Source of the DNA: Massalongia carnosa
Lineage: Eukaryota
Direction: 5' to 3'
DNA length: 64,000 nt
Assembly (NCBI GenBank): GCA_965645245.1
Contig: OZ287078.1
Coordinates: 868,001 to 932,000, forward strand
Under the pieces are notes generated by a model, which made no database searches, was not told where the DNA came from, and was given only the letters and a program-made list of their open reading frames with translations. Shown here piece after piece: positions 8,138 to 55,652 of the stretch. Each line of letters opens with the position of its first letter. Within the stretch, counting starts at the first letter, position 1. A program made the translations under genes and the position numbers.

Positions 8138-11100
8138 CCTCCACCGAAGGCGCGGATGGAGGTGAACCTTTGTTGATTTCATCTAGCTGTTTACCAGGCG
8201 ATTTGTTTACGGATGAACCTCTAATCATACAATGTAGGCTAGGTAACAGCGAAGAAATAAAAGTAATGGGACTGTTGGACACGGGTGCAACAGGACACGT
8301 ATTCATTGATGAAACGACTGCGCGTAAAGTTTGCGAAAAGCTTCAGATTTCCCCTCAGAGACTAACACGACCGAAACCGGTGAAAGGGTTCGATGGTAAA
8401 AGAGGTAAAGACATTACTCATGCCATCTATCCTACTCTTACCGTGCAAGACCATATGGAAACGGTCGCCCCCCTGTTGATCACAAACTCGAACAACACAA
8501 GATGATCCTCGGAAAACCATGGATGAGGAAGCACGGGGTGATCATAGACATGGCCACCGACCAGATAGTCTTTTGGCCCGGACACTGCACGCATTCGGGT
8601 ATATCGAAGCCACCATCAGAAAAGAAGATAACGAAGACGACAAAAGAACCCGCTGAACCGAAGAAGGCTATGAAAATCCTGACCAGAATGAATAAAAACG
8701 AACCTGGAAAAACCTGGCCAGAACCGGCAATTTCAACCAATACGACGTCGAACAAGGGACTATCAGAAGGACTATCAGACTCCGGAATCAAGGTTAAACC
8801 GACTACCGAGGAAAAGCCGCTAGAGATGGCGATGATAGGGGCCGCTGCGTAGCGATTATTGTCCAAACAAAAGGACGTTAAATTATTTTCTATCTTATTG
8901 AAAGACATCGAGTACCAGCTGAATAAAGAAGACCGTCCCCCTACTGACCCGAAGACCGTAGTTCCCCCAGATTACCATGAATTCCTGGATATCTTTTCAA
9001 AGGCTGCATCCGACACGCTGGCATCTCACCGCCTCTATGATCATCGAATGATTCTGGAAGGCGGAAAGATCACGGACATAGCCCTCTCAGAAGCATGTCC
9101 CAAAAAGAGCTGGAATTCGTCAAGAAATACCTGGAAGAGAACCTCCGAAAAGGGTTCATTGAGGCTAGCCACGCAGCTTGTTCGTCCCCAATTCTTTTGG
9201 CCAGAAAGCCCAATAGAGGACTTCGCTTTTGTGTCGACTATAGAAGGCCGAACCAGCTGTCAAAGAAAGACTACTATCCAATCCCGCTGATCGAGGAAAC
9301 ACTGGCCCAGCTGAAGGAAGCTAAGATCTTTTCGAAAATTGATATCCGACAGGCGTTCCACAAGCTCCGAATAGCCATGGAATCTGAAGACCTGACCACG
9401 TTCAACTCCCGTTTTGGCGCTTATAAATACAAGGTATTACCGTTTGGACTTTCCGGAGGACCGTCGACCTGGCAGCACTTCATCAATGATGTGTTGTTCG
9501 ATTATCTGGACAAATTCTGCACGGCTTACCTGGATGACATTCTGATTTATAGCAAGAACATGAAAGAGCATCGGGAACATGTGCGGGCTGTTTTGACAAA
9601 GCTTCGAGAGGCCGGACTTCAGGCTGACGTAGACAAATGTGAATTCCATGTGACGGAAACGAAATATCTGGGACTGATCATAGGAGTTGATGGCATTCGC
9701 ATGGACCCGGCCAAAATCAAAGCTATTCAGGAATGGGAAACCCCTACCTGCCTACGTGAAGTTCGGTCGTTCATTGGTTTTTGCAATTTCTATCGTCGGT
9801 TCATCAGGGGTTTTTTAAAAATTGCCAAACTATTGAACGCCCTTACAAAGAAAGAACGGATATTCGAGTGGACCCCAGCATGTGCAAAGGCTTTCAGGAC
9901 GTTATAGAAACGGATCGGTGAAGCCCTAATCCTCATACATTTCGACCGGAACAAGCAGTGCTACTTGGAAACGGACTCTTCGGACCATGTCAATGGAGAT
10001 GTGTTGTTCCAGATAGGAGACGACGGAGAACTTCACACGGTAGCCTTCTTTTCAAAGAACATGAGCCCAGCGGAATACAACTACGAAATCTATGACAAGG
10101 AACTGCTAGCAATCATTCGATGCTTTGAACTATAGAAGCCGGAACTCGAAAGCACAGGGTTACCAGTGAAAATCTTCACCGACAATCGTAGCCTAGAGTA
10201 TTTTATGACTACGAAGAAACTAACTAGACGGCAAGCCCGATGGGCGGAGTTCCTTTCGGGGTTCAATTTCGTCATCACCTACCGGCCTGGAAAGAAAAAT
10301 GAAAAAGCAGACGCGCTAACCCGAAGGCCAAACGATAAGCCCCACGACGATAATGATGAAAGGCAGCAGCACCAATTGCAGACGCTACTGCCCCCGGAAA
10401 GATTAGAACTTCAGCCCATTGAAGAAGCGACGGAACCAGAAGAAACGACACGGAACGATGAACCCGACCCCGAACTCCCGACCCTCGACGAAAGAATCAA
10501 ACAGGAAAACCTCGAAGACGAACTCTGCACCCGAATACGAAACGCGATAAAGGAAGGGAACTCTGATGACGACTCTCTACCGGACATAAAGAACTGCACC
10601 GAGAAGAACGGACTGCTATACAAACGAAAGGGCTTATGGGTACCGGACAAGAAAGAGACCATCCTAGAGGTTATTCGGCAAATACACGACCAAGTGGCGG
10701 TAGGGCACCCCGGAATGGCCAGAACGGTGAATGTAATCGGCCGGAACTACTATTGGCCAGGCATGAACAAGGATATACGCCGCTATATGCGAAATTGCCA
10801 TGTGTGTCGACGAGCCAAGGCCCCAAGGGACAAGTATAATGGACTGCTGAAACCGCTACCCATACCAGAAAGACCATAGATAGACTTCACCCTAGACTAC
10901 GTTACCGGCCTCCCGAAGAGCAATGGAAATGACGCCATCCTGATGGTAGTAGACCGACTGTCCAAAGAGAGACACTATATCCCATGCATATGTGATGAAG
11001 AAGGAACTACGTCCGAGGCCACAATAAAACTCCTAGTAGACAACGTATGGCGCTATCATGGACTCCCAAGCAGCATAGTATCGGACCGGGGCCCCCAATT

Positions 11101-18151: not shown

Positions 18152-18168
18152 AATTACCTATTCAATCG

Positions 18169-18442
18169 TGTTGAATATCCAATTCCTACCAGCACAATGA
18201 ACACCTATCAGTACGATGAACATAGCACCTACGGCTGCCCTAGATGGACAGATCATCTACGGAAACCGTAGATGCCGCATTAGGCTTAGTCCCAAGATAA
18301 GATAAGATCACCTCGCTTAGAAGGGGGTGACCAGTAATAGGAAAAGATTGCTGCCTAGCAACTCTTCAACCTTAACATCACGGTCATACATACCTTTATT
18401 ATTACATAGCCATATAGCCATAGTCATACACCTATTTCAACA
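18169..18442 (+). mobile_element. Copia solo LTR (274 bp), same family as 42654-48824
   Basis: TGTTGAA...TTCAACA; TSD AATCG at 18164-18168 and 18443-18447; 2 differences seen from the full element's LTRs. Confidence 0.95.
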
Positions 18443-18517
18443 AATCGAGTATTAATTAAACAAATTAATCTTGATCAAATTAACACTTTACTTTTTATCG
18501 TAATGGTTATGTAAATC

Positions 18518-19459: not shown

Positions 19460-19673
19460 ATAGCGAACATAACAGGAGTCCTAGAATAGAGCTTAGTCTG
19501 CGGACTAAGTATTGTGTCGGGAGGACAGGTGGCGCAATGGTAGAAATCCATTCACTATCTCGCTTCGTTATATAAAACGTCATTCGAAGTACTTTAAATG
19601 TAAATAAAAACTTCTCGTTGTTGAACGTAAATATTCACACTATCCGGAGAACATTATAAACTATTTTGAACAA

Positions 19674-20147
19674 TGTGACTGTTTAACCAGGATGTGGAAT
19701 TGACTATCTACTGGGAAGCTATGTACTAGAAAATATCAAAGATGCAGAAAGGAAACAAGCAAAAGGTGCCCTCTCTAGGAGTCTATATAGATAATCGCTT
19801 GGCCCGATCCAGCTGCTTGTGTCTTCATCAATAAGTGAACAGTTTGGTCAAATAGTCTTTTTGCCCGTTGTCCCTTTCATCTATTAGTGTTTGCTTTAAA
19901 AGGTCGTTCCGATGCGACCCTCTAAAGCAAACACTAATAGATGAAAGGGACAACGGGCAAAAAGACTATTTGACCAAACTGTTCACTTATTGATGAAGAC
20001 ACAAGCAGCTGGATCGGGCCAAGCGATTATCTATATAGACTCCTAGAGAGGGCACCTTTTGCTTGTTTCCTTTCTGCATCTTTGATATTTTCTAGTACAT
20101 AGCTTCCCAGTAGATAGTTAATTCCACATCCTGGTAGAACCGTCACA
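19674..20147. repeat. 474-bp palindrome occupying the 5' LTR position of Gypsy C
   Basis: 233-bp arms 19674-19906 and 19915-20147 (about 6 mismatches) around the loop TTCCGATG; the right arm matches 3' LTR sequence 25739-25972. Confidence 0.95.
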
Positions 20148-20757
20148 TAATATCAAAGATCACTTTTTACCCTGTTATCCATCGTGGAGGATACAAAATA
20201 ACCCACCCCATAGAAGCAGAACCAGAAGGCCGCCACCCCTACAGCGTGGCATTCAGAACCAGAATTACCCTATAGATCCAGAACCAGAAGGTCCCCACCC
20301 CTACAGCGTGGCACCCAGAACCCTATTTAGATCCAGAACCAGAATTAGAGACCATGGCGAATCGTCATAAAAAAGAACCAGAACTAGAACCAGAACAGGA
20401 CTCTGTTCATTATCCGGCCCTGCCAGAAGAAGAAACCCAACTGGAAGCAGAAGACCCTTCCATGATCCAGACAATAGAACATCTGAGGGCATGGATGCTC
20501 CAGGATGAGCAGGCAGTGTTACAGATAATTATAGCCATAAAGGAAAGTTATGAAGAGGCCCAAGCTGAAGCGGCCAAAGGAAAGAACACCATGAGCCGAC
20601 TCCTCTCCCTGACGAAACAACAAGAAGGAGTAGTGAATTACTTACAAAAGGTAGTCGAAAAGCTTAGGCTGACATTGATCGAAGAGCGACGACCGGATGT
20701 TGCTACTATCTCTTATTCCACCATCAGTCAGAAGGCAAAACGTTCCATGAAGCTTCC

Positions 20758-23900: not shown

Positions 23901-25972
23901 TTACACGTCGTTCGAACGACAAGCCACAGGATGACGAAGCTGAAAGACAAAAGCATCAATTACAAACGGTGTTGACCTCAGATAGACTAGACCTTCAACC
24001 AATCGAGATCATCGATGAAGACCTTACCCTCGCAGAAAAGATCAAACATAGAAATCTTTCAGATGAGACCTGCAACCGAATGAGGAGTAAGCTGACCGAA
24101 GAGGACTATGAAGAATCACTAGAACTAGACCCGCTCCCCAGCATCAAGGATTGTGTAATCAAGGAAGGCCACCTCTATAAAGCCGAACGCTTATGGTTCC
24201 CGCTGACGATGATTTGATCCTCAATGTAATTCGACAAATTCATGATCAAGTAGCAGTTGGACATCCCGGAATGGCAAAAACACAACGAACAATAGCCAGG
24301 GACTACTACTGGCTAGGCATGTTGAACTCCATTCGGCGTTATGTCAGAAATTGCCATGTGTGCAAACGAGCCAAAGCACCCAGGGACAAATACAATGGAG
24401 TACTGAAAACCCCTGCCAGTTCCTGAAAGACCATGGACAGACATTTCGTTGGATTATGTAACTGGACTTCCAGAATCCCAAAATGGTCACAATGCAATTT
24501 TGATGGTAGTCGACCGATTGTCAAAGGAACGGCACTACATTCCATGCACGGCCAAGGAAGAGGGAACAACCGCTGAAGCCACCGCTAAACTGCTGATTAG
24601 GAATGTTTGGAGGTATCACGGCCTCCCAACCAGTATGGTTTCTGATCGAGGACCGCAGTTCGTTTCCGATACCTGGAAGGGCATGTGTAAAATCCTAGGA
24701 ATCACCACAAAGCTTTCCACCGCATTTCATCCTGAAACGGACGGCCAAAGCGAAATAGCCAATCAGGAAATAGAACGACACCTCCGGAGTTTCACCAACT
24801 ACTTTCAGGACAACTGGGTTAAACTATTGCCAATGGCCGAGTTTGCGGCGAACTCCGGGGAAGCAGAAACCACCCACCTTTCACCTTTTATGGCTAATCG
24901 AGGTTATGAACCAAGGATGAGTTTTACTTTGACCGACTTGTCGGCCGACACCACCCGTCAAAGACTCGCCAACGAAAAAGCCAAGGACATCACCGAGGAC
25001 ATGGAGAAAGTTTGGGACTTCGTCCGAAACAGCATGACCAAAGCTCAGGAAAGACAAAGGACCGCCGCGGACCGGCACCGAAACGAAGTCACTTATGAGG
25101 AAGGAGACATGGTCTGGTTATCCACCAAAAATATCCAAACCGAAAGAAGCTCCAAAAAGCTGGACCATAAAATGATTGGACCATACCGAGTGGAAGAACT
25201 CATCGGATCCGCATGCCGATTAAAGCTACCAGCTTCCATGAAAATTCATGACGTCTTTCATACAAGCTTATTGAGAAAAACAGCTGACGACCCTCTACCC
25301 GGACAAGTAAATGAACCATCTCCTCCAGTAATAGTAGACAACAAGGAAGAATGGGAGGTGGATGACATACTGGACGCTCGGGAGGTACTATCGAAAAGTC
25401 CACTTCAAAGTCAAATGGAAGGATCATGATGAAGATAGACAATGGTACGACGCAACTGGCTTCGAAAATGCTAAGGACATAGTAGAAGACTTCTATCTTC
25501 GACACCCTAACAAGCCTCGATGGAGTATTTCCTGATTATGATAGTCACTTTTGGGGCTAAAAACATAGTATGTTCAATGAACCTCCACTAAATGCGAAGG
25601 GGTCCACATCCACCCAAGGCCAATCAAAGGAAAGTACGGCATCTGCCAGCGCAATAACCGCTTCCGTTACTCAACCCTTTTAGCAATCATAGGGACAATC
25701 AACGGAGGTCTGAAAGGACTGAAAGGGACGCATCGGAACGACCTTCTAAAGCAAACACAAATGGATGAAAGGGACAAAGGGCAGAAAGACTGTTTGACCA
25801 AACTGTTCACTTATTGATGAAGGACACAAGCAGCTGGATCGGGCCAAGCGATTATCTATATAGACTTCTAGAGAGGGCACCTTTTGCTTGTTTCCTTTCT
25901 GCATCTTTGATATTTTCTAGTGCATAGCTTCCCAGTAGATAGTCAATTCCACATCCTGGTAGAACCGTCACA

Positions 25973-26596
25973 TCTACCCTCATCATCGACCCCATTATTG
26001 ACTAGAACACCTCGCACTTTCACTGAGATCGTTATCTTTGACACTATACTTTAAAGAAGCATGCAGAAAAATGATGTTATCGACGGAAATTAGAAGTTGC
26101 ATGTCGATCGCTTTTTCAAAGATTCTATGGCTAGCGCTCATGCTCAGCAATTGGCTGAAAGGGACTTATTGACCTCAGCCAGAGCCTCAATTGCTAAGGC
26201 AGCGCGTAAAAAGCTTGCTGGAACTGTTGCTCAGTCAGGTGGGGTCATCACCGTTCGAGATTTACGTGCTAAAGTCACCAAACGACATGAAGATGAGGTG
26301 GAAAAGGCACAGAAGGCCTTGGACCGAGCTAAAGCGGCCGCATTGAAAAAGCAACAGGTCATCGACAACGCCGAAAAGAAGCTCTAGAAAGGCCTATTTC
26401 GTGAGGCCAATATCTTCCTTCGAGCGCGTAAAAAATGGGAGGTTGAAAGGACCAAATGGTGGAAGGTTTTCCGTAGTCAGATTGAACATGCATAGTTAAT
26501 TTGGTCTTTGAACCGGTTTGGACTTTGAGCCGTTGGGCACTAGTAAGCGAAAACGATTACTGGTGTGGCACGATTAGCCGACTCGCTTCGATTACT
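25973..26596 (+). mobile_element. 3' fragment of a probable Fot1/pogo-like DNA transposon
   Basis: ORF 26097-26387 (..RTPRT.., VAQSGGVITV, basic coiled-coil tail) resembles the C-termini of fungal pogo transposases; putative TIR near 26555-26596. No catalytic domain in view. Confidence 0.55.
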
Positions 26597-39947: not shown

Positions 39948-40943
39948 TCATACAGTATCCAGCACCGTCTCTTTGAACTCCCTCTCAACCTTCTGCCCTT
40001 GCTCGTCTGTCGTCGATTCACCGTGAAGATTGAGGAGAGCGCCCAGGTCAAATTTAGGTGCTTTCAAGAGCTTGACTTTCCTAATGTGCACCTGGGGAAT
40101 GTCAGCATGATGTCGATAGTGTTGCTTGAGTCTTTATTTGCAGGCAGTGCATTGAATACGAACGTTTTGTAGTGGATAGATGCCTTGAGTGGCCTTCTCG
40201 ATTTCACGACCAATAACCTCTGGAATCAACTTAGTTGTCAACTGGGAAAGTGTACAGCTTGAGGCTTCGCGCTGAATGATCTCAACCATTTTTTTACGGA
40301 TAGCGCGGATTTGAGAGGTGGCAGCGTATGTGGTCTTCTTGATCTGGTTGGGTCGTCGCTTTGTAAATGCAATTGCAAAAAGGCGTAGGAGGTAGTCGTC
40401 AGTGGTCTTGACAGTAATGTTCGCCTCAATAAGCGTCTGCCATTTGCGGACAAGAGACCTCAGTTTATCCGAGGTAAAATCTAGTCCATGGAAATTTGTA
40501 AGGCAGTTTTTCCCCTGCACCTCGTCGACCCTAAGCTTCACCTTGCGGAATGCGTGGTCCTCATCCTTCTGTAGATCGGCGAGCGAGACTTCAAAAATCC
40601 TTCCTTTTAGAGCATCGTTCGCATTCTTAAGGCCGGTCGTCCTGTTCACCAGCGTCTTGCCAACACTAAATTAATTAGCAGGCCGATAATACTCGATAAC
40701 GGATGAGAGTCCTACTCGCGGACTTGGAACGTAGACGGCGCCTTGATGACTGTCAGAAAAGTAAAAGATTTTGGGAACGCTCGAAAATACCTTGACAGAA
40801 TACCAATCTTTGCGGGTAAACGGATCTTGTCTCTTCTTTAGCCCCTTCTTGCTCTTTGAAAGACGCTTGTTTCTGGTACAGTCATTAGCTACAAAGTGCA
40901 GACCGTAACCCGTTTAGGATTTCACTGACTTTCCAACAGCCAT
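39948..40943 (-). CDS. RPS1: 40S ribosomal protein eS1 (S1/S3a)
   Basis: MAVGKNKRLSK..., [41 protein letters not shown]. Confidence 0.97.
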
Positions 40944-41083
40944 GATGGCGGTGTAGTGGGGGGTGTAAGTTGATTGCGATTAATCTGCAAAGTTTATCAA
41001 AGTTAGAGTATTATCGACAAATATTCGACGGGTTAAGCTAACATTTCGCTTAAATTCAGGTTGAGGGCAATAACCCTAGCTAT

Positions 41084-42407
41084 CACGCGCTCGCAGAAAA
41101 AAAAGCGACACCCAAAAATTTCACCCCATCAAAAATCTCCCCTTTTCACCAACAACCAGCATCATGGAACGACCCAACACACCTGAACCTAACTCTTCTG
41201 AATCTAGAATGTACTATCCTACTCCTACAAAAGCTAAAATTCAAGGAGCCGTTGAATTCTGCGATCGCATGGGCATTCTCTACTTCAAAGAGGACGTTTT
41301 TCGTACGTTTAATGTGAGTCATCATGCCGGCTGGAGAGCTTTAAATCAGGAGAGCTCGCGAAGACATCACAATAAGCCTGATCTTCCTGAAACGCGAGGG
41401 CGAAAGGCTATTGTTACTCCGCAAAAAATTCGCGAAATGGAGCGCATCATAGAGGAGGAGGGATTTGAGGCGCGTGCTCTCACCTGGGCACAGTTGGGCT
41501 ATGAGGTGGAACTTGAATGCTCGGGACGAATCATACAAATAGCTATGGGAACGATTGACTATCACAAATGCGTCGCATGCGGAAAGGGCTGGGTCAATGA
41601 GAAAACAGCTCGTCGTCGCTTTGATTGGGCCAAAGTTATGTTGAAAAGATATCCTGAAAAGTCTGACTGGCATAACATACGATTCAGTGATGAGGTGCAT
41701 TTCGGATGGGGTCCTCAAGGTAAACTGTCCATCATTCGCCAGCCGGGCGAAAGATATTGTCAGGACTGTATACAGCAAGCAGAAGAACCAGATTCTAGAG
41801 ATGTGAAACGGCATCATTGCTGGGCAGCTGTTGGTCACGATTTCAAGTCAGATATTCATTATTACAATGTGCCGGGCAATGCCAATGGAAAGATGAGTCA
41901 ACGGGTGTATATTGATCAGATTTTGGAGCCGGTGGTCAAGCCGTGGCTTGATCAGGGGCATGACTTCGTGCTTGAAGAAGATGGGGATTCGGGTCATGGA
42001 CCGAGCAAATCAAACATCGTACGCACTTGGAAGGAGACAAATCATCTAAACCATTATTTCAATTGTGCTTCATTACCTGCTTTATCTCCTGTGGAAAACA
42101 GCTGGTCAGTTCCGAAGCAACATCTTCATAAACATCCTCATTGGGACGATGCGACGACCAAGGAGCTAATTAATGAAGGATGGGATCGTGTTTCTCAGGC
42201 ATTTATTAATGAAAAAGTTGATGAAATGCCTGATCGGTTGCAAGCCGTCATAGATGGCGAGGGCCAGATGACTGGCTACTAGTTAGATGAATATAATCAG
42301 CTTTTCATGATGATTAAATGCTGGTTGTTGGTGCTGGTTGTTGATGAAAAGGGGGGATTTTGTAGGGTAAAATTTTTGGGTGTCGCTTTTTTTTCTGCGA
42401 GCGCGTG
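41084..42407 (+). mobile_element. Tc1/mariner-type DNA transposon copy 1 (1324 bp)
   Basis: 38-bp perfect TIR CACGCGCTCGCAGAAAAAAAAGCGACACCCAAAAATTT, extending imperfectly; single intact transposase ORF; flanks GCTAT and CCTGT. Confidence 0.95.
41164..42282 (+). CDS. Tc1-like DDE transposase, 372 aa, DD37E spacing
   Basis: W..IRFSDE, CWAAVG, LEEDGDSGH, LSPVENSW and MPDRLQAVI..G..TGY motifs. Confidence 0.92.
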   Translation: MERPNTPEPNSSESRMYYPTPTKAKIQGAVEFCDRMGILYFKEDVFRTFNVSHHAGWRALNQESSRRHHNKPDLPETRGRKAIVTPQKIREMERIIEEEGFEARALTWAQLGYEVELECSGRIIQIAMGTIDYHKCVACGKGWVNEKTARRRFDWAKVMLKRYPEKSDWHNIRFSDEVHFGWGPQGKLSIIRQPGERYCQDCIQQAEEPDSRDVKRHHCWAAVGHDFKSDIHYYNVPGNANGKMSQRVYIDQILEPVVKPWLDQGHDFVLEEDGDSGHGPSKSNIVRTWKETNHLNHYFNCASLPALSPVENSWSVPKQHLHKHPHWDDATTKELINEGWDRVSQAFINEKVDEMPDRLQAVIDGEGQMTGY

Positions 42408-43180
42408 CCTGTCACGCGGGTGAAAAAAAAATATGCAACGTTGGCCGAGGTTAACCCCAGACCACCCACCGAAATCTTCTAAATAATCAAACAAAATCCC
42501 ATACATTATGATACTCCTCTGAAGGCTAAATTGCAAGGCGCGCATTAATATCTTTCTTCTAAAGGTATTCCACACGACGTGCGCGACATTTTCAAAGAAT
42601 TTGATGTTAGATCTGAAAGAGCAGAATATAAAGGGTCAGAAATATATGACACTTGTTGAATATCCAATTCCTACCAGCACAATGAACACCTATCAGTACG
42701 ATGAACATAGCACCTACGGCTGCCCTAGATGGACAGATCATCTACGGAAACCGTAGATGCCGCATTAGGCTTAGTCCCAAGATAAGATAAGATCACCTCG
42801 CTTAGAAGGGGGTGACCAGTAATAGGAAAAGATTGCTGCCTAGCAACTCTTCATCCTTACCATCACGGTCATACATACCTTTATTATTACATAGCCATAT
42901 AGCCATAGTCATACACCTATTTCAACAGGTTATGAGCCCGGAAGGGTGCTATCGATTTAAACGAATCGAAACTTTTAATCCGCAGCTTCGCAGTGCAATC
43001 AGCTAAGCATCGTTCCTATTCAATAAATCGTAGACACATGACTAAAATCTTTCTGTGTCTTTAGAAACGATCCCTTAAATCACATCAATCAGTTCTCTCT
43101 TCTGTACACAGCGATTTCTTGTCAGAAGCACAAAAACTGCGTGTTAGAAAGAGCATGAACACATTGATCGTACTACACCG

Positions 43181-44739
43181 AAGCCCTCGGACACCAAAGA
43201 GCTTGCTAAGCTCGATGGTCGAAGGCACTCAAGCCCTCGGACACCAAAGAGCTTGCTAAGCTCGATGGTCGAAGGCACTCAAGTCCTCGGACACCAAAGA
43301 GCTTGCTAAGCTCGATGGTCGAAGGCAATCAAGTCCTCGGACACCAAAGAGCTTGCTAAGCTCGATGGTCGAAGGCAATCAAGTCCTCGGACACCAAAGA
43401 GCTTGCTAAGCTCGATGGTCGAAGGCACTCAAGTCCTCGGACACCAAAGAGCTTGCTAAGCTCGATGGTCGAAGGCAATCAAGTCCTCGGACACCAAAGA
43501 GCTTGCTAAGCTCGATGGTCGAAGGCAATCAAGTCCTCGGACACCAAAGAGCTTGCTAAGCTCGATGGTCGAAGGCACTCAAGTCCTCGGACACCAAAGA
43601 GCTTGCTAAGCCCGATGGTCGAAGGCACTCAAGCCCTCGGACACCAAAGAGCTTGCTAAGCTCGATGGTCGAAGGCACTCAAGTCCTCGGACACCAAAGA
43701 GCTTGCTAAGCCCGATGGTCGAAGGCACTCAAGCCCTCGGACACCAAAGAGCTTGCTAAGCTCGATGGTCGAAGGCACTCAAGTCCTCGGACACCAAAGA
43801 GCTTGCTAAGCCCGATGGTCGAAGGCACTCAAGCCCTCGGACACCAAAGAGCTTGCTAAGCTCGATGGTCGAAGGCACCCAAGTCCTCGGACACCAAAGA
43901 GCTTGCTAAGCTCGATGGTCGAAGGCACCCAAGTCCTCGGACACCAGAAGAGCTTGCTAAGCTCGCTGGTCGAAGGCACCCAAGTCCTCGGACACCAAAG
44001 AGCTTGCTAAGCTCGCTGGTCGAAGGCACTCAAGTCCTCGGACACCAAAAGAGCTTGCTATGCTCGATGGTCGAAGGCACTCAAGTCCTCGGACACCAAA
44101 AGAGCTTGCTATGCTCGATGGTCGAAGGCACTCAAGTCCTCGGACACCAAAAGAGCTTGCTATGCTCGATGGTCGAAGGCACTCAAGTCCTCGGACACCA
44201 GAAGAGCTTGCTATGCTTGATGGTCGAAGGCACCCAAGTCCTCGGACACCAGAAGAGCTTGCTACGCTCGATGGTCGAAGGCACTCAAGTCCTCGGACAC
44301 CAGAAGAGCTTGCTACGCTCGATGGTCGAAGGCAATCAAGTCCTCGGACACCAGAAGAGCTTGCTACGCTCGATGGTCGAAGGCACCCAAGTCCTCGGAC
44401 ACCAGAAGAGCTTGCTACGCTCGATGGTCGAAGGCACCCAAGTCCTCGGACACCAGAAGAGCTTGCTACGCTCGATGGTCGAAGGCACCCAAGTCCTCGG
44501 ACACCAGAAGAGCTTGCTACGCTCGATGGTCGAAGGCACCCAAGTCCTCGGACACCAAAGAGCTTGCTAAGCTCGATGGTCGAAGGCGCTCAAGTCCTCG
44601 GATACCAAAGAGCCCGCTAAGCTCGATGGTCGAAGGCGCTCAAGTCCTCGGACACCAAAGAGCTCGCTAATCTCGATGGTCGAAGGCACCGAAGTCCTCG
44701 GACACCAAAAGAGCTCGCTAAGCTCGATGGTCGAAGGCA
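43181..44739. repeat. Tandem array of 31 x 50/51-bp units in the Copia 5' leader
   Basis: Unit AAGTCCTCGGACACCA(G)AAGAGCTTGCTAAGCTCGATGGTCGAAGGCACTC; no spacers. Confidence 0.97.
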
Positions 44740-45221
44740 AAAAAAGTATATTGCTGGCCCTGAGCGCCCCATTGGTTCAAAAATCATCAAAGCGTCAGTT
44801 CACCCGTGGTTGAGTTCTGGACACGCAAACAATACAAAATCCCTCGGACATCAAAGAGCTTAGTAAACTCATTGATCGAAGGCACAAAGACCTTTCTTTT
44901 TGGCAATTATGCCTCCTTAAGGCACTAGATGAGATTGTGCGGCAGTTGCCTCTTATTATCTAACCGGCCTAAGGCCGGTTAAATCAATTGGAATAATCAA
45001 TTTGCTTTTGGTCAATTGGACCCTTGAAAAAGCCGGAGTTGAAATTCTCATCATGGCAAACAAGCATGTTAAGCTAACAGGTTTCTCTGTTGAGACATCA
45101 GAGTGGACACTGCCTAAGGAGGGACTGTTTTTTCCTTGTCTATAAGAAAGGTCACAGATCCACATTCTTTCAGTCACTACTAAGTTTCTCGCCTTGTTCA
45201 ATTGCTCCCCATTCTCCCATT

Positions 45222-48200
45222 ATGTATATCATAGATACGTCACATCTTTTGGAGAAAGCCGAAAGATATTCGGCATGGGCAAGCTATACGAAGGGCATTC
45301 TGCTCAAGAACAACTGCGAAGGAGCCATTCTGGAGAATCAATCAGAAATCACCGCTGAAACCATCGAGGAAGGTTTAATACAAGCAGGCTTCGACGCCAA
45401 AGGTCTTTCAGTCAGCATCTTGGTAAAAGAACTGCGTGACTAGAAGAATAGACAGAAGGCCGAGATGACCAAGGCTATAGGAATCATTCACGGATTAGTT
45501 GCGGAGTGCCATTATAGCCTCATCGACAACAAGAATGTGGCAGAAATGTGGAAAATCCTGAAGGATAGATTCCAAGATATAGCACCAATGAGCATCAGCG
45601 ACATCATTCTGAAGGTTAGTTCCAAGAAGATGACCGACTTCGAGACGACCAGTCTATACTGTGCATATTACGAGAGCGCTTTAAACAAGATTAAAGGAAT
45701 GCTGGACGACAAGGCCAAAGTGGATGTGCATACCGTGGAGTTTATGCTTAAGGGAATGATGCTGGGTAACACCAGACGTCTATTCCCCATTGATAGCCCA
45801 ACTTCGACGAGATTGAACATACGAAACCACAAACCTGTCGGAAGCAATGAAGACCATTATTGCTTATTATGTCAACATGAAAATCACCAAGGCACTTCAT
45901 ATCAGCACACCTGACTCAAGAGGTCGAGCCCCATCAGGGAACTGCACCTTCTCTTAATGTGTCAAGAGAAAGAACACTCGTCATTGGCTAGATACCTGTT
46001 TGCCGAAGTTTCCACAGTTAAAAAGACATAGAAGTTCGCTCGAATCCGGAAGAGCAAAGGAACAAAAGACTACCTCGTTAGAAACGAAGGCGGACTTATA
46101 TCATACATCAACCAACATTTCAACGACCATTGACACTCCAGATTTGAGGATGCATTTGAGCAAAGTGGACGAGGACACCTATCAAGGACTGGACGTCATT
46201 ATCTGTCAAATCAAAACTCACTACATGGCATGGAAGGCTTGGTCATCTCAACATAGCAACGTGTCGAAAATATCTGAAAACGCTAGACATAACGTACGAT
46301 GACGATATCAACCACGGTTGGTTTTGCCATGCATGCGAAATGGGAAAAGCCAAAAAGATATATAACCGAACACGGCAAGAGAAGGCCACAGAGCTCTTTC
46401 AAAAGATAAACTCTGACCTAGTGGGACTAATCAAGCCATCAGGACTTCTTGAAGAACTTTACCTCTTTCCTTTCACCTGTGATGCTAGCAGATACACTCA
46501 TGTCTATACCGGACACAAGACGAGTGAATGGTTTGATCACTTGTTGACATACTACAGCATGGCTCAAAACAAATCCGGAAAGGCTAAACTCATAAGCAGT
46601 TTTCGCACTGACTTCGGCGCGGAGCTTCGCAGTCACAAGTCAGACGTTTGGTCCTTGGAACAAGGCATAACGTTTGAAACAGCTGCTCCATACTCTCAAG
46701 ATGAAAACGGAGTCGCGGAACGAATGGGCAGAACCATCATAGACATGACAAGATGCAGTGTCATTGCCAGAGACATTCCAGACTACTTGTAGGCAGAAGT
46801 GGTTCTAGCCATGGTTCACACCAAGAACGTCAGACCAACCAACGCCTTAGCAGGTAAAACCCCGTATGAGATCTTCGAGAAGAAGTCACCTAAGCTGGAT
46901 CACCTGAGAATTCTCGGATCTACAGTCTATGCATTAATTCACGAAGAAGAGCGAAAAGGAATAAACAGCAAGGCTGCTAAATTTTCTCCGAGGGCTCAGA
47001 AAGGAATCCTGTGTGGATATGACAGAAGCACCATCTATCGCGTCTTTATGGAAAAAGACTACAAGGTCATTAGGGTCAAGAACTTACGAATTCATGAAGA
47101 CGCCACATTCAAAGATGGGATACATTACCTACCGAGTCCATGGAACCCGAACATATAGTCTTAAGTGGCAAATGAGTATTCAAGCTGAAACGAGACGTAA
47201 ATGAAAAGACCGTTCGCTTTAAAGCCAGATGGGTTGTCAAGGATATCTCCAACAATACCGAGTAGATTTCGATCAAACCTTTGCATCTATGGCCAAACAA
47301 TGGCTTTTCGCTTGCTATTCGCGTTAGCTGCTCATCATTATCTGCACATCGAGCGACTGGATATAGTGACAGCTTTTCTGAACGGTCTCATTATCAACTC
47401 ATCTATGTCCACATGCCGAAAGGATATGACACAGCTGGCATGGTGTGCAGGTTGAACAAAGCCCTATACGGTTTGAACAGTCTCCGCGTCCCTGGTATGA
47501 ACGACTGTCAGCTTTTCTATTGAGCAAATTAGGATTGGAGAAACTCCACGCAGATCATAACATTTTCGTCACACCTCAAGGGATAAAAGGACACATTGTT
47601 ACCTCTTTCGTTGACGATTTGAACATCATAGGCCCAAGGGTTCCCCGATGATCACCGAAGTCAAGAAACAGCTCAAGCTAGCTTTCAAGATGGTAGACAT
47701 GGGACCAATCAGCTACTATCTAGGCCTTAAAGTCGAACGAGATCGAGTCAACAAAACCATAAAGCACTCCCATGCGAGAAGGCTGTCTCTTCATCAATGA
47801 ATTTCAGGACTCCGACAAGGACATAAAGCAATATCAAACCATGGTCGGATCCATCACGTTCGCAATGATAGAAACCAGGCCAGACGTAGCTTTCGCAACG
47901 TCCGTAATCAGTCGAAATGCAAAGAATCCAGGCAAAACACATATGGAAGCGGCCAAACACATTCTCAGATACCTTAGCGGTACCAAGAATAGAGACATCA
48001 CCTTCGACAAATAGCAGCGAAAATCCAACTGGGGTTATGTGTTCATGCTGAACAATGGACCAATAAGCTGGTGTTCCAAAAGACAAATAACCGTCACATT
48101 GTCATCAACCGAAGCAGAGTATATGGCACTCACCTTAGTAGCAAAGGAGGCAACATGGCTACGTTTACTGATGACCGAACTCGGATTGACGACTTCTGAT

Positions 48201-48482
48201 GACGGATCCCCGACAATAAACGTGTTAAGAGGAGAAGGCACAATTGCATTGAAAGGCGACAATCAAAGCGCCATAGCACTGGCCAATAACCCCGTATTAC
48301 ACTCCAGGACCAAGCATATCGACATTCAGCACTACTTGATACGAAACGAGGTGCTAGAAGGAAGAATCGAACTCACCTATGTTCCGACCGAAGACATGAT
48401 TGCAGATGGACTGACAAAAACCCTCACGCACGTCAAGTTCTTCTCCTTTATCAGACAGCTCAACATGGACAAACAGACATGA
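45222..48482 (+). pseudogene. Copia gag-pol, fragmented by stops, frameshifts and deletions
   Basis: Integrase (RTDFGAE, ENGVAER), RT (LDIVTAFLNG, LNKALYGL, FVDDL) and RNase H ([26 protein letters not shown]). Confidence 0.9.
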
Positions 48483-49198
48483 GAGGTAAAGAAGTTCAAC
48501 CACGGTTGAATCCACGATGGAAACAAGTACTGGTAGGACTTGAGGGGGGGTGTTGAATATCCAATTCCTACCAGCACAATGAACACCTATCAGTACGATG
48601 AACATAGCACCTACGGCTGCCCTAGATGGACAGATCATCTACGGAAACCGTAGATGCCGCATTAGGCTTAGTCCCAAGATAAGATAAGATCACCTCGCTT
48701 AGAAGGGGGTGACCAGTAATAGGAAAAGATTGCTGCCTAGCAACTCTTCATCCTTACCATCACGGTCATACATACCTTTATTATTACATAGCCATATAGC
48801 CATAGTCATACACCTATTTCAACAACACTCGAGGTCGCAATTCAAGCTGTGATTGACAGTCACGGTGCAATAACTGTGTAATTAGTGAATTTTAGATGGA
48901 ATTTAGGGGGAATTGGAAGGGTTTTAGGTGGGGTGATCATGGGGTAACCTCGGCCCACGTTGCATCTTTTTTTTTCACCCGCGTGCCTGTGTGTGCACTC
49001 TGCTACTTATTGTTTAAATCGCCACATGGCATGATTACCAATAAACAGTACAGTAACTCTGGAATGAAGTAGCCATATGTAATCAGAGCCTTCGTTTCGA
49101 GTTCAGGACTTCAACCATTGTTACCAAAACAAATGGTAGGGAGACAACCATGATAAATATTAAATTCTAGCTGTGAAAGTAGTTTCCTTGGATCAATC

Positions 49199-51340
49199 AT
49201 GGAGACAGGAAGCTCGCTGGAACAGGCTACGTACCATACCACACTTAATCAAATTCTATCGACGCTCAAATCCATTCAATCAGATTATCGGCAAGTTTCT
49301 GCGGCTGTAGAAGCCATTGATGGGCGTGTCAATATTCTTACAAGTTCTAAGCTACACTACGATGCCGAAGAGGATAAGCAGCAGAGTATTAATGGGACGG
49401 TGGCCTTAGAAAGCCCCGTACAGGATATCCATAATGAGTCGGCCGAATCCTCTGCTAAAGTTTCTCCCAGACCGCTGGTCATAAATAGGGGTCCTGATCT
49501 GTCACAGCCAAGAAAAGCTACTCCAGGTGGTCGAATCTCATCATCGACGTCCTCCTCACGGATCATTTTAACTACGTATCCGGGCCAGTCAGGAATTGAT
49601 CCGTTGGTAATGAAATGGGGCCACAAGGATCCATTGCAGAGGGGCCCTGTAGTGGTTTCACGTAGCCAAAGTACAATCAGACGTCGTAACGGTAGGGGAA
49701 CTGGTAATTGTATCTAAATCGCATGCTTCTAACTCGCCATTCTCACAGCAATTGGTGCTCATGGTGGTTCGTACTCGATTTACCATGCTTTGGCCGTCGC
49801 CAGCAAGAACCTCGATGTTGAACACAAGCCTGACTTCACGAACACTGAGCCAGCAGTGGCCCTCGGTCCGTTTCCTCAATGGGCCGATGCGAAGAAGATA
49901 GTTTCAATGGATCCACTTGGGCATCTTGCTCCTTGGCTGTTCACGAAGTTAATTCATGAAGAGGACGTTCACATTAGGCCGACAATTGCAATCACTAAAG
50001 CCCATATGAAGCTTCCAGAAATTGAACAGAGCGTTCGAAATGGCCGGCTTCAAGTGGACGGGAAAATATGTCTGAACGAGACTGGGGAACTGGCTGTCAC
50101 AAAGTTTGCTGTCGAGCCTGTCTGGCATCTGCCTGGGGTTGCCGAGCGATTTGGAATCGGTAGGTCTTTGGTATTTCGCACGAAAAATAATTTCTTTCTT
50201 AGAGAAGCGGCCATAGAATGAGGCTTCAGCTAAGCGGAAGTAGATGAAGGACTTTTAAGGCGGTCACTGTTCGAAAATACTGGGGGTTCGTTCCCAGAAC
50301 TCATCACTCGAAGTGATATCAAGTTATTTCTCCCTCCAATTGGGGGTTTGACCGTCTATTGCTTCGGAGATCCCGCAAAAATGTCAGATCCAAATGTTAG
50401 GCTGGCACTTCGCGTGCATGACGAGTGCAATGGAAGTGATGTTTTTGGGTCCGATATATGCACATGTCGACCATATTTAATATTTGGTGTTGAGGAAGCC
50501 GTCAAGGAAGCCCAGAAAGGTGGCAGTGGAGTTGTCATATATTTTCGGAAAGAAGGACGGGCATTAGGAGAAGTCACCAAGTATCTAGTATATAATGCTC
50601 GTAAGTTCTATCGCGACCATTTTAGAGACTACTGGCACGTCATGCTGACGAATGGAATTGCAGGCAAGCGAGGGACAGATCGTGAGCAAGTTTTGAACTA
50701 CCTTAACAGTCTTGAAACTGACTTGTGGCGATTAAGGGGCAAGCGAATATTTCAAGAGAACCGAGAATATTGCTGGGGTCAAGGTGGGCAAATTGCAAAG
50801 TCATTTAGCATCCGATGCTAACTATTTAAGGATATGCGCTTCCAAGCTCTAATGCCAGACGTACGTAGTAAAAGCAGTTCTTTAACTTACAGGATTGATA
50901 GCTGTGCCAGGTTTTGCATTGGTTAGGTATCATCAAGATTGATCGCATGCTTAGCATGTCAAAGTAAGCCAAGCCATAGCCATTAGTTACAAGGTTCCTA
51001 TGCTAAATATTGTGAGTCATTAGCATGAAATATGATGCTATAGTCGAGCAAGGCATTTCCATCCATGAGCGGGTCCCTATCCCCGAAGAACTGATACCGG
51101 AAGACAGCCGTGTAGAGATCGATGCTAAGATCCATGCGGGGTACTGTAAGCACATAGACCTCAACGAAGTTATGCGTAGAGTAACACTAACAAATGCTTC
51201 AGTCACCACTGGGAGAGTCATGAGTATGGCGGAATTATCTGAAGTTCAAGGTCGAGCCTGGGACGATGTTGATGTAAGCGAAAGAACCACTGCATCTATA
51301 ACTCTTCGATTGCTAACATTGCTGTTCCTAACAGCATTGA
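49199..51340 (+). CDS. URC1: GTP cyclohydrolase II-like uracil-catabolism protein (URC1/urg1 type), multi-exon
   Basis: RIILTTYPGQSGIDP, RRRNAIGAHGGSYSIY, LRVHDECNGSDVFGSDICTCRPYL and EIDAKIHAGY. Confidence 0.85.
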
Positions 51341-51896
51341 ATCCACCAACCGTTTCCTTGAATTCAGTATGACAAACCCCGTCTCCCACCATATAACCCA
51401 ACGTCTCTATGCCCAAACAATATGCGAATAAAGTAAACTAGAAACCCATAGGAAAATGGCATTACGAGGGGACATTTTGCTCGGTCCAGAATTGCTCAAT
51501 GCTTGAAGTATCTCTCTTACTCAAGATCCCTTGCCGTGCTGTGAAAAGTGTCTCTGACAACAAGTTGTACCGAGCTTATAGGCCTGATTTTTCAAGCTGT
51601 GATGCTCGTAAGGAAAAGCTCATGTATTTAAGAATATAATGACTGCTCAAGAGAGAATTAATTACCATATCATTTACCCCTTGAAAGTTTGTAGAAAATA
51701 TCACAGAGATCCATTCAATCAATTGGATCGCAGTTCGAAGACAATTATAGAGAAAGGCCTACTGATATTTGAATCGACTTCCAAATAATGAGGGAAGACC
51801 TTTCTAATCGACCTTTTTTATGAGTTTATACCTCGATAACAAATTAAATCACTCACTTAGCTTTATGAGGGTACTCTCCGTAACCGCATACATAGC

Positions 51897-53219
51897 CACG
51901 CGCTCGCAGAAAAAAAGCGACACCCAAAAATTTTACCCTACAAAATCCCCCCTTTTCATCAACAACCAGCACCAACAACCAGCATTTAATCATCATGAAA
52001 AGCTGATTATATTCATCTAACTAGTAGCCAGTCATCTGGCCCTCGCCATCTATGACGGCTTGCAACCGATCAGGCATTTCATCAACTTTTTCATTAATAA
52101 ATGCCTGAGAAACACGATCCCATCCTTCATTAATTAGCTCCTTGGTCGTCGCATCGTCCCAATGAGGATGTTTATGAAGATGTTGCTTCGGAACTGACCA
52201 GCTGTTTTCCACAGGAGATAAAGCAGGTAATGAAGCACAATTGAAATAATGGTTTAGATGATTTGTCTCCTTCCAAGTGCGTACGATGTTTGATTTGCTC
52301 GGTCCATGACCCGAATCCCCATCTTCTTCAAGCACGAAGTCATGCCCCTGATCAAGCCACGGCTTGACCACCGGCTCCAAAATCTGATCAATATACACCC
52401 GTTGACTCATCTTTCCATTGGCATTGCCCGGCACATTGTAATAATGAATATCTGACTTGAAATCGTGACCAACAGCTGCCCAGCAATGATGCCGTTTCAC
52501 ATCTCTAGAATCTGGTTCTTCTGCTTGCTGTATACAGTCCTGACAATATCTTTCGCCCGGCTGGCGAATGATGGACAGTTTACCTTGAGGACCCCATCCG
52601 AAATGCACCTCATCACTGAATCGTATGTTATGCCAGTCAGACTTTTCAGGATATCTTTTCAACATAACTTTGGCCCAATCAAAGCGACGACGAGCTGTTT
52701 TCTCATTGACCCAGCCCTTTCCGCATGCGACGCATTTGTGATAGTCAATCGTTCCCATAGCTATTTGTATGATTCGTCCCGAGCATTCAAGTTCCACCTC
52801 ATAGCCCAACTGTGCCCAGGTGAGAGCACGCGCCTCAAATCCCTCCTCCTCTATGATGCGCTCCATTTCGCGAATTTTTTGCGGAGTAACAATAGCCTTT
52901 CGCCCTCGCGTTTCAGGAAGATCAGGCTTATTGTGATGTCTTCGCGAGCTCTCCTGATTTAAAGCTCTCCAGCCGGCATGATGACTCACATTAAACGTAC
53001 GAAAAACGTCCTCTTTGAAGTAGAGAATGCCCATGCGATCGCAGAATTCAACGGCTCCTTGAATTTTAGCTTTTGTAGGAGTAGGATAGTACATTCTAGA
53101 TTCAGAAGAGTTAGGTTCAGGTGTGTTGGGTCGTTCCATGATGCTGGTTGTTGGTGAAAAGGGGAGATTTTTGATGGGGTGAAATTTTTGGGTGTCGCTT
53201 TTTTTTCTGCGAGCGCGTG
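51897..53219 (-). mobile_element. Tc1/mariner-type DNA transposon copy 2 (1323 bp), inverted relative to copy 1
   Basis: Same TIRs (one A fewer in a homopolymer); identical protein; flanks ATAGC and ACAGG. Confidence 0.95.
52021..53139 (-). CDS. Tc1-like DDE transposase, identical to 41164-42282
   Basis: Identical 372-aa translation in the ORF track. Confidence 0.92.
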   Translation of the reverse strand: MERPNTPEPNSSESRMYYPTPTKAKIQGAVEFCDRMGILYFKEDVFRTFNVSHHAGWRALNQESSRRHHNKPDLPETRGRKAIVTPQKIREMERIIEEEGFEARALTWAQLGYEVELECSGRIIQIAMGTIDYHKCVACGKGWVNEKTARRRFDWAKVMLKRYPEKSDWHNIRFSDEVHFGWGPQGKLSIIRQPGERYCQDCIQQAEEPDSRDVKRHHCWAAVGHDFKSDIHYYNVPGNANGKMSQRVYIDQILEPVVKPWLDQGHDFVLEEDGDSGHGPSKSNIVRTWKETNHLNHYFNCASLPALSPVENSWSVPKQHLHKHPHWDDATTKELINEGWDRVSQAFINEKVDEMPDRLQAVIDGEGQMTGY

Positions 53220-53605
53220 ACAGGTACTTGGTAACTTCTTGGTAACTTCTTTGAAATACTTACCTAACTTACTTGGAGTACAGTGCAGAGTGCCTACTCT
53301 ATATGATAACGATCGCTTTGATAGCAGTTAAATAATCGCACAAGCGATTCAATCTAGTTGATTGTTCCGTCGAAACTTTCCCTTGTATTTCTGGCTCAGC
53401 GCACTCCAATCCAACTCACTTGGTCTATCTACTACGACTACTATCAACTATCCGATTTTCATGCGAGCTTTGACGAATATAAGTTTGGAGCAGTTATTTT
53501 CCCAATCTGTTTCAGGCCTGTGCACGCTTTCAATGAATTCACTTCCCTACCGATAGGTAATTACCTGAAATAACTCAAAAGAGTTGGCAGGTTGCTCTTC
53601 CCACC

Positions 53606-54233
53606 ATGGTATTGTACTGTCTCATCTTATTGGATCCATTTCAGTGGACCTTTCGGAAATCTAATATTGGTTTAATAGGGAAAACGCAAGAAGTCAAGTC
53701 GGAAGCCACAAGGTCCCAAAAAGGTAATTTAGCACGTATCTTACTTGGTGTCCCCGTGGAAATCTCCTGGTAGGTAGGATATATTTACAATACATATACA
53801 GAAAGAGAACCTACGCACGACATTCTCCTGCTTGTTCTGCAATGGCGAAAACTCGGTGACGGTCAAGCTGGATAAAAAGGCCGGAACGGGCGAGCTCGCC
53901 TGCAAAACATGTGGCCAGCAATATCAAACCGGCATAAATTGTAAGTTTAATGGTCTAGCTCATTGCAATCTAGCTGTTTTGCTTCTTCCGGCATTGTACG
54001 TCGCGAGAATTATTGACTGAGGGCAAATTTCAGATCTTTCTGCAGCTGTAGACGTTTATTCGGATTGGATCGATGCTTGTGACGATGTTGCCAAAAGCGG
54101 AGGAGATGCTCTAGAAAACGAGGGTGGGATGAATCCTTATTACGATCTGGCGGCTGGGACTGGGGGAGAGAGCTCGACGATGCACCTTGACCGCCATTTG
54201 GTATCTACCGTTGAGGGGGATGATGATGGTTAG
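53606..54233 (+). CDS. ELF1: Transcription elongation factor Elf1 (4 exons; first coding exon is the ATG only)
   Basis: [25 protein letters not shown] and [15 protein letters not shown]. Confidence 0.92.
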
Positions 54234-54667
54234 GGACGCTACCATGGCGCTTTATCTTAACAATGAACGACTTTCCCCATCGACGATAGGTTTAATGTAA
54301 AACACTAGAAGTTATGTCAATCAGGAGGTTAAAAGCGGTTGCAAGTAATATGGACTATTTCATATCAATCAATCTCTTCTCTATTTGCGTTGAGCATCTA
54401 GGACTTGAAATATTTCGGGGTGTTTTCAAGCTATCTTGATATGTTTCCTTCCTCGTCGAGTGCTGATCAAAGACCCCTTTTGTCTGTGATCGCGCGAACT
54501 ACAAACCGTACATACTTTCCCGTCTCAAATATATTCGCATATGACTATTCTACAAAGATAGATATCTACAGGCACATGGTTTGGCACCATTTACGCAGTG
54601 CATACTTTCCAGCTGTACTCCAGAAACCGCGCTATATTTGCACGGGTATGAGAGTGCTCTTGCGGAA

Positions 54668-55652
<985 letters not shown>

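Follow-up and report, generated by a model that had tools for sequence, protein, structure and literature searches.

The inverted URC1 locus

We analysed a 64-kb stretch of Massalongia carnosa DNA (OZ287078.1, positions 868,001-932,000; hereafter the window, whose numbering is used for all its features) in which a URC1-like gene lies between two oppositely oriented copies of a transposon, A1 and A2, with RPS1 on one side and ELF1-like and FUR1-like genes on the other (Table 1). We are highly confident that the URC1-like gene has undergone a real, derived inversion, both breakpoints of which are insertion sites of one transposon subfamily. The gene names RPS1 (chosen from its sequence and not from a family scan), URC1 (a uracil breakdown gene, so named in an earlier note on this DNA) and ELF1 are presumptive assignments.

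Table 1. Features of the window, and large inverted repeats on other contigs of the assembly. ORF, open reading frame; MITE, miniature inverted-repeat transposable element; LTR, long terminal repeat.
Feature	Position	Strand	Remarks
RPS1 (ribosomal protein eS1) gene	39948..40943	-	six-frame translation, ATG position; lower end approximate
Target duplication 1, GCTAT	41079..41083	+	partner ATAGC at 51892-96
Transposon copy A1	41084..42407	+	1324 bp; CACGCG termini
Transposase ORF	41164..42282	+	372 aa; Tc1 fold; D176, D273, E311; DD37E
CCTGT	42408..42412	+	target duplication 2 of the A pair; doubles as the left duplication of MITE B
MITE B	42413..48985	none	397 bp without Copia; CACGCGGGTGAAAA ends; flanks CCTGT/CCTGT
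Copia-type LTR retrotransposon in MITE B	42654..48824	+	ACACT duplication; fragmented reading frames
Array inside Copia	43181..44739	+	about 31 copies of a 50-51-bp unit
Core inverted segment	48986..51896	none	2.9 kb; third CCTGT to ATAGC
URC1-like gene, GTP cyclohydrolase II-like	49199..51340	+	introns; Pfam GTP_CH_N, GTP_cyclohydro2; 3' end approximate
ATAGC	51892..51896	+	reverse complement of duplication 1
Transposon copy A2	51897..53219	-	1323 bp; ORF 52021-53139
ACAGG	53220..53224	+	reverse complement of duplication 2
ELF1-like gene	53606..54233	+	start codon inferred
Uracil phosphoribosyltransferase gene, FUR1-like	54672..55646	-	Pfam UPRTase, E 1.3e-46; ends approximate
Large inverted repeat pair	C1:111428-121058 vs 175924-185935
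Large inverted repeat pair	C7:1904202-1913458 vs 1976100-1985871
Large inverted repeat pair	C13:39405-49599 vs 104437-117396

A1 and A2 are homologous, lie in opposite orientation, one at each breakpoint, and carry exchanged target duplications 5 bp long, the duplication length of their own transposon family. All four pentamers (GCTAT, CCTGT, ATAGC and ACAGG) lie exactly where the earlier note had placed them. In this family a matching pentamer is the rule, since 77 of 103 paired elements have an exact duplication; A1 and A2 each break that rule yet match each other. If uniform composition is assumed, two pentamers would match reciprocally with a chance of about 1e-6; the target bias of the family would raise it, yet it would still be small. 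The copies had also been said to differ by one visible base, and this holds: between them we find no substitution and a single T indel, which falls within a poly-T stretch in the 3' inverted repeat. The inverted repeats of A1 are about 80 bp long and imperfect, with the first 38 bp perfect, and each copy has an ORF of 372 codons.

Three other full copies of the subfamily differ from A1 and A2 by 29-38 substitutions, and all three lack about 13 changes that A1 and A2 share. Two of the three have exact duplications (CCATG and ACAGG); the third, judged by eye, reads CTTCC/CCTCC. In both A1 and A2 the SPDL motif reads LPAL (S304L, D306A), at positions where the S and D are kept in 88 and 89, respectively, of 91 aligned sequences. 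Because of this change both copies are probably inactive at present.

Gene order in relatives

The relatives examined were 80 metagenome loci, the best 80 of 374 retrieved with one URC1 exon as query, and neighbouring genes in them were scored with window-derived peptides. RPS1 is present in 18 related loci (11 clusters at 90% identity of nucleotides), in all of them downstream of URC1 and on its strand, the strand being the one that the earlier note had predicted for relatives; the RPS1 region matches relatives at 74-76% of nucleotides. The uracil phosphoribosyltransferase gene (UPRT) is upstream of URC1 and codirectional in 40 of 41. For ELF1, 54 of 55 loci have it on the upstream side and the opposite strand, in agreement with the former divergent order of URC1 and ELF1 that the note had proposed. 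Because of this arrangement of RPS1, ELF1 and UPRT, the present orientation in the window is derived. With the flip undone, the spacing between URC1 and RPS1 is 966 bp, compared with 986 bp in the closest relative (L032), so that, as a coarse test, no large loss occurred at this breakpoint. In the 8 of 80 loci tried, the intergenic DNA failed to align and so gave no reading of empty target sites.

The inversion leaves coding sequences uncut, and it splits the intergenic region that relatives keep between a divergent gene pair. The RPS1 start codon is 136 bp from the left breakpoint, the ELF1-like start is about 380 bp from the right one, and the URC1-like gene keeps 209 bp of native upstream DNA.

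Other individuals and the extent of the segment

The stretch 48400-55400 was compared with four (X1, X2, X4 and X5) of seven sequencing runs, all of which consist of contigs; one record among them is labelled lichen metagenome, which suggests a lichen-associated ascomycete. X2 and X4 show no difference from the window between 48958/9 and 51926 nor, in the listed pieces, from 53195 on; either may be the source of the assembly. X1 is another genotype, with 16 differences in 5082 unique bases, 6 substitutions being in the URC1 segment and 10 in 53225-55400. X1 also lacks 11, 2 and 5 bases in the repeat-rich region upstream of ELF1 (window 53227-53308), adjacent to the right breakpoint.

A 2985-base piece of X1 enters an A end at ATAGC, continues there for 43 letters and shows the short A-run of A2. 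On its other side only the shared hexamer at 48980-85 matches, and the 19 remaining letters do not fit MITE B. Because a B end would align and an A end differs at the seventh base, the point where the match stops suggests an A-type, non-B end at CCTGT in X1. A second X1 piece has an A end at ACAGG. It therefore appears, from these contigs, that X1 carries the A pair without MITE B or Copia at the CCTGT site.

By a 31-letter rule, junctions are bridged only by one X1 record (record 5, the ATAGC junction) and one X5 record (record 29, the ACAGG junction); the pieces of X2 and X4 stop 25-30 letters inside the elements, and X5, at a depth of 2-5, is uninformative apart from that record. Among the listed joints and pieces of the four runs, no empty allele is present in the stretch compared. 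No listed piece crosses an A copy; the contigs break inside the repeats and cannot give orientation.

These data also bear on the size of the event. The earlier note had the Copia inverted within a 9.5-kb segment, which is probably wrong: in X1 transposon ends enclose a URC1 segment of 2.9 kb, and the MITE end at 48985 is missing. A third CCTGT, at 48986-90, had been overlooked and closes MITE B, a nonautonomous element of the same superfamily as the A copies, in which the Copia is nested. Because MITE B lies between direct CCTGTs, it landed exactly on the 3' duplication of A1, or the reverse. We infer that the core segment is 2.9 kb (48986-51896), the 9.5 kb including later insertions, and that MITE B and the Copia are younger than the A pair, because X1 shows the ends of that pair without the MITE B end.

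The Copia has identical LTRs of 274 bp each (42654-42927 and 48551-48824), yet its frames are fragmented and it holds a 1.5-kb array; a similar array and LTR occur at another locus (L291). These features suggest a nonautonomous retroelement that moved in trans. The domain support of the Copia (rve, E 1.7e-4) is below the cut-off. A solo copy of its LTR is at 18168-18443. Other repeats of the window include a 476-bp self-complementary (foldback) element at 19673-20148, with a partial second copy at 25724-25973, and, over 1-26000, a nested cluster of decayed repeats; positions 1-6000 are A+T rich, with a G+C content of 0.32-0.38 compared with 0.38-0.53 elsewhere.

The transposon family

The family was surveyed in the window's own genome assembly (G000; 52 Mb in 25 contigs, denoted C1, C6 and so on). 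Its terminus pattern gave 168 + 167 matches, compared with 0 + 2 for a reversed control, 335 termini in all; 103 paired elements from retrieved loci and stretches were scored. Exact duplications of 2, 3, 4, 6, 7 and 8 bp were found in 11, 4, 4, 1, 1 and 0 elements, respectively, compared with the 77 having 5 bp, and TA stands on both flanks in none of the 103. The 77 matched sites, symmetrised, give the target consensus TA-N-[5 bp]-N-TA, with T and A at -3/-2 (0.64 and 0.59) and at the mirror positions, around a C/G-C-W-G-G/C core. Among the 26 elements without an exact duplication are A1 and A2 and at least one mispairing (L219); in several others the terminal dinucleotide has slipped or a single base mismatches, and in about ten the flanks are unrelated. 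For the other mismatched elements no reciprocal partner was found in a sampled comparison of pentamers by eye or in 9.9-kb regions around 10 of them. The 5-bp rule is established for one genome; no CACGCG termini occur in the 80 related loci, and the homologous proteins come without DNA.

The transposase has 329 homologues, mostly with precomputed DDE_3 and Tc3-type helix-turn-helix domains, in genera that, where named, we take to be Leotiomycetes, Dothideomycetes and Sordariomycetes. In a search with a profile built from the alignment described below, the best sequence match was SB100X (Sleeping Beauty; E 1e-19), with Mos1 weak, and the best folds for the predicted structure (predicted local distance difference test score, 83.6) were Mos1 and Sleeping Beauty, with E values of 3e-11 to 2e-10. 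The Pfam DDE_3 match to the window protein (P0001) is weak, at E 4.6e-4 below the cut-off, and an IS630 model matches 3 of 4 proteins, all below the cut-off. We aligned 90 of 120 listed homologues onto P0001, omitting shorter, partly covering ones. The triad D176, D273 and E311 (DD37E) is present in 86, 89 and 86 of the 91 aligned sequences, and four cysteines forming two CxxC motifs are kept in 89, 88, 81 and 87. One can conjecture that the motifs form a metal site in the modelled protein, in which residues 185-205 have low confidence. The element consists of terminal inverted repeats around a single transposase ORF.

By its enzyme, then, the family belongs to the IS630-Tc1-mariner (ITm) superfamily and works like Tc1; because its elements lack the TA duplication, it is not a canonical member. 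A distant homologue (27%) in two relatives (L063/L086) represents the canonical state, with CAG ends and TA on both sides. At about 7815-9117 in the same two loci, the TA-flanked Tc1-like element with CAG ends lies between ELF1 and URC1, an independent insertion in the same interval. Duplications in ITm elements are given as TA, or TAA and TAAA in pogo, in the accessible text of PMC7386202, PMC7325037, PMC10045372, PMC2817418, PMC3164196 and PMC13469147. A literature search, outside of which lay Repbase, Dfam, subscription journals and supplements, turned up no Tc1-type family with a 5-bp duplication; none appears in the accessible parts of PMC5751038, PMC5014426, PMC4981457 and bioRxiv 2022.12.06.519325.

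Several features of the survey deserve separate mention. In four places an element of the superfamily starts 5-14 bp from the end of another (window 42408-42412, L011:2581, L187:2537 and L206:170), by a rough estimate far above chance, which would fit hot spots or end-directed targeting. As a general rule abutting ends were rejected: the genome-wide pattern gave 1 locus and a looser scan of retrieved loci 4, too few for targeting. Unrelated flanks were seen in 12 elements (L009, L131, L152, L187, L192, L198, L204, L207, L211, L213, L217 and L234); at L204 an LTR has lost about 96 bp, L217 shows no net duplication and L207 adjoins another element at its end, and the remainder may mark further deletions or translocations. 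One element (L266:3911-5515, C9:1003537-1004887) lies between the arms of an inverted repeat that is perfect over about 128 bp and takes in CCAGG/CCTGG at the ends. As a scar of hybrid insertion, 128-bp inverted flanks (L191) were set aside, insertion into a foldback element being probable. Two copies of one subfamily with identical flanks, 6.6 kb apart (L186; C6:2494661 and 2501308), are apparently passengers of both LTRs of a retroelement.

Inverted repeat pairs of at least 9-10 kb, 97-98% alike and 50-65 kb apart, are common to several contigs (L302-L319; Table 1), and terminus spacing suggests more on C12, C16 and C17. The arms hold one ORF, presumably for an NB-ARC-type NOD-like receptor, a 126-bp tandem array and a CACGCG end; the interior on C1 holds nonribosomal peptide synthetase-like and retroelement fragments. 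These pairs are candidates for a giant mobile element or an inverted segmental duplication; their true ends and duplications were not found.

Origin of the inversion

The anatomy of the locus, the derived orientation and the 5-bp duplication rule we regard as established; the route is a matter of weighing. The earlier note had ascribed the inversion to ectopic recombination between the copies. The part of this that stands is that the segment is inverted relative to relatives and that its breakpoints are two transposon copies. The exchanged duplications do not prove the route, because hybrid-element transposition gives the same product, with identical copies. According to the accessible text of Delprat et al. 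(2009; PMC2775673), ectopic recombination and insertion of a hybrid element from one site produce the same exchanged duplications, the copies being chimeric in the former case and identical in the latter.

The likeliest route is a one-step origin by hybrid-element transposition, for which we see about an even chance. We propose that a single A copy originally stood at one site and that, after replication, transposase would have joined its 5' end from one sister chromatid to the 3' end from the second. By inserting about 2.9 kb away on the same chromatid, this hybrid would in one reaction add a second copy, invert the segment and exchange the 5-bp duplications. Afterwards gene conversion may have kept A1 and A2 alike, MITE B would have landed on the 3' duplication of A1 and the Copia in MITE B, and the segment would thereby have stretched to 9.5 kb; this order is likewise reconstructed. 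Written out on paper, with the 3' end from one chromatid, the 5' end from its sister and the target on that sister 2.9 kb away, the reaction predicts left flank-GCTAT-[A>]-CCTGT-segment reversed-ATAGC-[<A]-ACAGG-right flank, the string observed.

Several findings favour this route. The copies have no substitution and the duplications are exchanged, as hybrid-element insertion predicts, and there is neither loss nor gain at the flanks, by a comparison of spacings that is coarse. A single event suffices, compared with two for recombination. Local hops look rare: in the largest young subfamily, of which 43 listed sites were checked by eye, no site lies within 20 kb of a sibling. Flank loss stops at the element end in two cases, L204 (about 96 bp) and L217 (without net duplication); such losses are the sister product class of hybrid-element insertion. 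Aberrant transposition is also cited for the fungal Tc1 element impala (PMC8225341, in a citing sentence).

Other findings weigh against it. Copies as old as the split from X1 should differ by about 4 substitutions, and there are none (P = 0.02; 0.07-0.11 if only the URC1 segment is used). Gene conversion between the copies is therefore probable; with conversion, identity of the copies loses its discriminating value, and further flips of the segment, which the earlier note had suggested, become plausible. An unflipped inverted pair on C6, 99.6% alike and 20 kb apart, has its own matching duplication at each copy, and so the intermediate of a two-step route does form. Since S304L and D306A are in both copies, the enzyme would have had to come from an earlier intact state or from another copy. 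With the flip undone, ELF1 and URC1 are 1166 bp apart, compared with 898 bp in L032. Finally, 1 of the 55 relatives (L075) has URC1 and ELF1 codirectional, in another overall order. The gene order of L075, WAPL- URC1+ ELF1+ UPRT- RPS1+, is a different, independent rearrangement of the same block.

In the recombination route, a second copy would have inserted nearby in inverted orientation, each copy having its own matching duplication, and a later crossover between the 1.3-kb repeats would have flipped the segment, which may flip again. We take this seriously, at somewhat short of an even chance. The product would be the one observed (accessible text of PMC2775673), and the yeast Diutina reportedly has a comparable inversion, with identical Dici1 copies in opposite orientation at its ends (accessible text of PMC13469147). 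The intermediate exists in the C6 pair, which is nonetheless unflipped, as is the other inverted pair examined (53 kb, 97.5%, compared with 20 kb and 99.6%). A1 and A2, with their roughly 13 shared changes, are more alike than the X1 split predicts. At 52194, 52223 and 52229 the X1 contigs show only the other letter, X2 keeps both and X4 has the window's letter, a hint that the copies exchanged sequence once the lineages had split, though a weak one, as contigs drop rarer variants. Two of these changes produce the LPAL motif. Two events are required, and the copies, with no substitution, are not chimeric, which is not decisive because twin or converted copies cannot show chimerism.

Two further explanations were weighed. 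An assembler crossing between the repeats of a strain in the ancestral orientation, with matching duplications, would yield exactly this pattern, and the contigs of the four runs do break inside the inverted repeats. We consider this very unlikely. The assembly has 52 Mb in 25 contigs, and a 1.5-kb tandem array in the window is resolved. Of 35 paired elements in the youngest subfamily, whose copies differ by a median of 3 substitutions, 34 keep matching duplications, the inverted pair 20 kb apart among them, so the assembler does not generally shuffle such flanks. Still further from credible is that an unrelated break inverted the gene earlier and that the pentamer matches are coincidental: the family has a target bias, ACAGG recurs at L005 and L262, and L075 shows that the block has been rearranged in another lineage, yet both copies would have to lack their own duplication and match each other's in a family in which 77 of 103 elements keep an exact one.

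Implications

The inversion is an ordinary, known kind of event, of which this is a clean, small example; the lead is the Tc1 lineage with its 5-bp duplication, and what would be new here is a Tc1-fold family without TA, pending a check of repeat databases. The inversion breaks up a conserved pair of divergent genes; URC1 retains 209 bp of native upstream DNA, beside a MITE and an LTR, so that its expression could change.

Tc1/mariner elements are in practice defined by their TA duplication, and Mos1 structures show how their 2-base stagger is set. With a natural relative whose stagger is 5 bases and whose target is wider, the setting of the stagger would become directly testable, and the family could serve as a gene-delivery scaffold that chooses other targets. 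Its elements would be misfiled by TA-based annotation tools. Variable 5-bp duplications let rearrangements be read from one genome, which those of TA elements do not.

Taking all of this together, we offer a speculative view that we think rather unlikely to hold in full. An undescribed Tc1-fold clade across filamentous ascomycetes would have left the TA rule for a palindromic TA-N-[5 bp]-N-TA site cut with a 5-base stagger, perhaps through a CxxC metal site (linker C136/C139, clamp-loop region C199/C202) that re-spaces the active sites. Its one-step hybrid-end inversions and deletions, made next to the element, would be barcoded by the duplication, and this locus would be such an event, one that split a promoter shared by URC1 and ELF1 and may still switch.

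Comparison with known systems

The family shares with IS630-Tc1-mariner elements (Sleeping Beauty, Mos1 and the DD37E groups impala and TRT) the DDE triad, the SPDL-type motif, an N-terminal helical DNA-binding part and the layout of a single-ORF element of about 1.3 kb with inverted repeats. Those elements have a TA duplication and CAG ends, whereas the family described here has a variable, G+C-rich 5-bp duplication, CACGCG ends, the target TA-N-[5 bp]-N-TA and two conserved CxxC motifs. Transib elements have CAC ends, a 5-bp duplication and a RAG1-like transposase; no RAG1 was among the sequence matches or the listed fold matches, and this candidate was rejected. Transib is also reported absent from fungi (accessible text of PMC5751038). 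The Sagan group, described with a TA duplication and a long D-E insertion (accessible text of PMC3164196), is ruled out by the 5-bp duplication and by DD37E.

Under hybrid-element or sister-chromatid transposition, as in the P element, Ac/Ds and Fusarium impala, one expects inverted copies that are identical, duplications that are exchanged, a target close by and, at other copies, adjacent deletions (accessible text of PMC2775673 and PMC8225341). The P element, Ac/Ds and impala events were caught experimentally, whereas ours is read from the finished product.

Among inversions, Galileo 2z3 of Drosophila buzzatii is reportedly of megabase scale; the one described here is 2.9 kb and holds one gene. 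Both have inverted copies of a cut-and-paste transposon at the breakpoints, exchanged target duplications and secondary elements added afterwards. In 2z3 the copies are chimeric, which decided for ectopic recombination, and empty sites were sequenced, whereas the copies in the window have no substitution (2z3 as given in the accessible text of PMC2775673). Dici1 of Diutina catenulata is likewise a fungal ITm element with an inversion between identical inverted copies. Dici duplicates TA and so leaves no exchange signature (accessible text of PMC13469147), whereas the variable 5-bp duplication of the family described here records each event.

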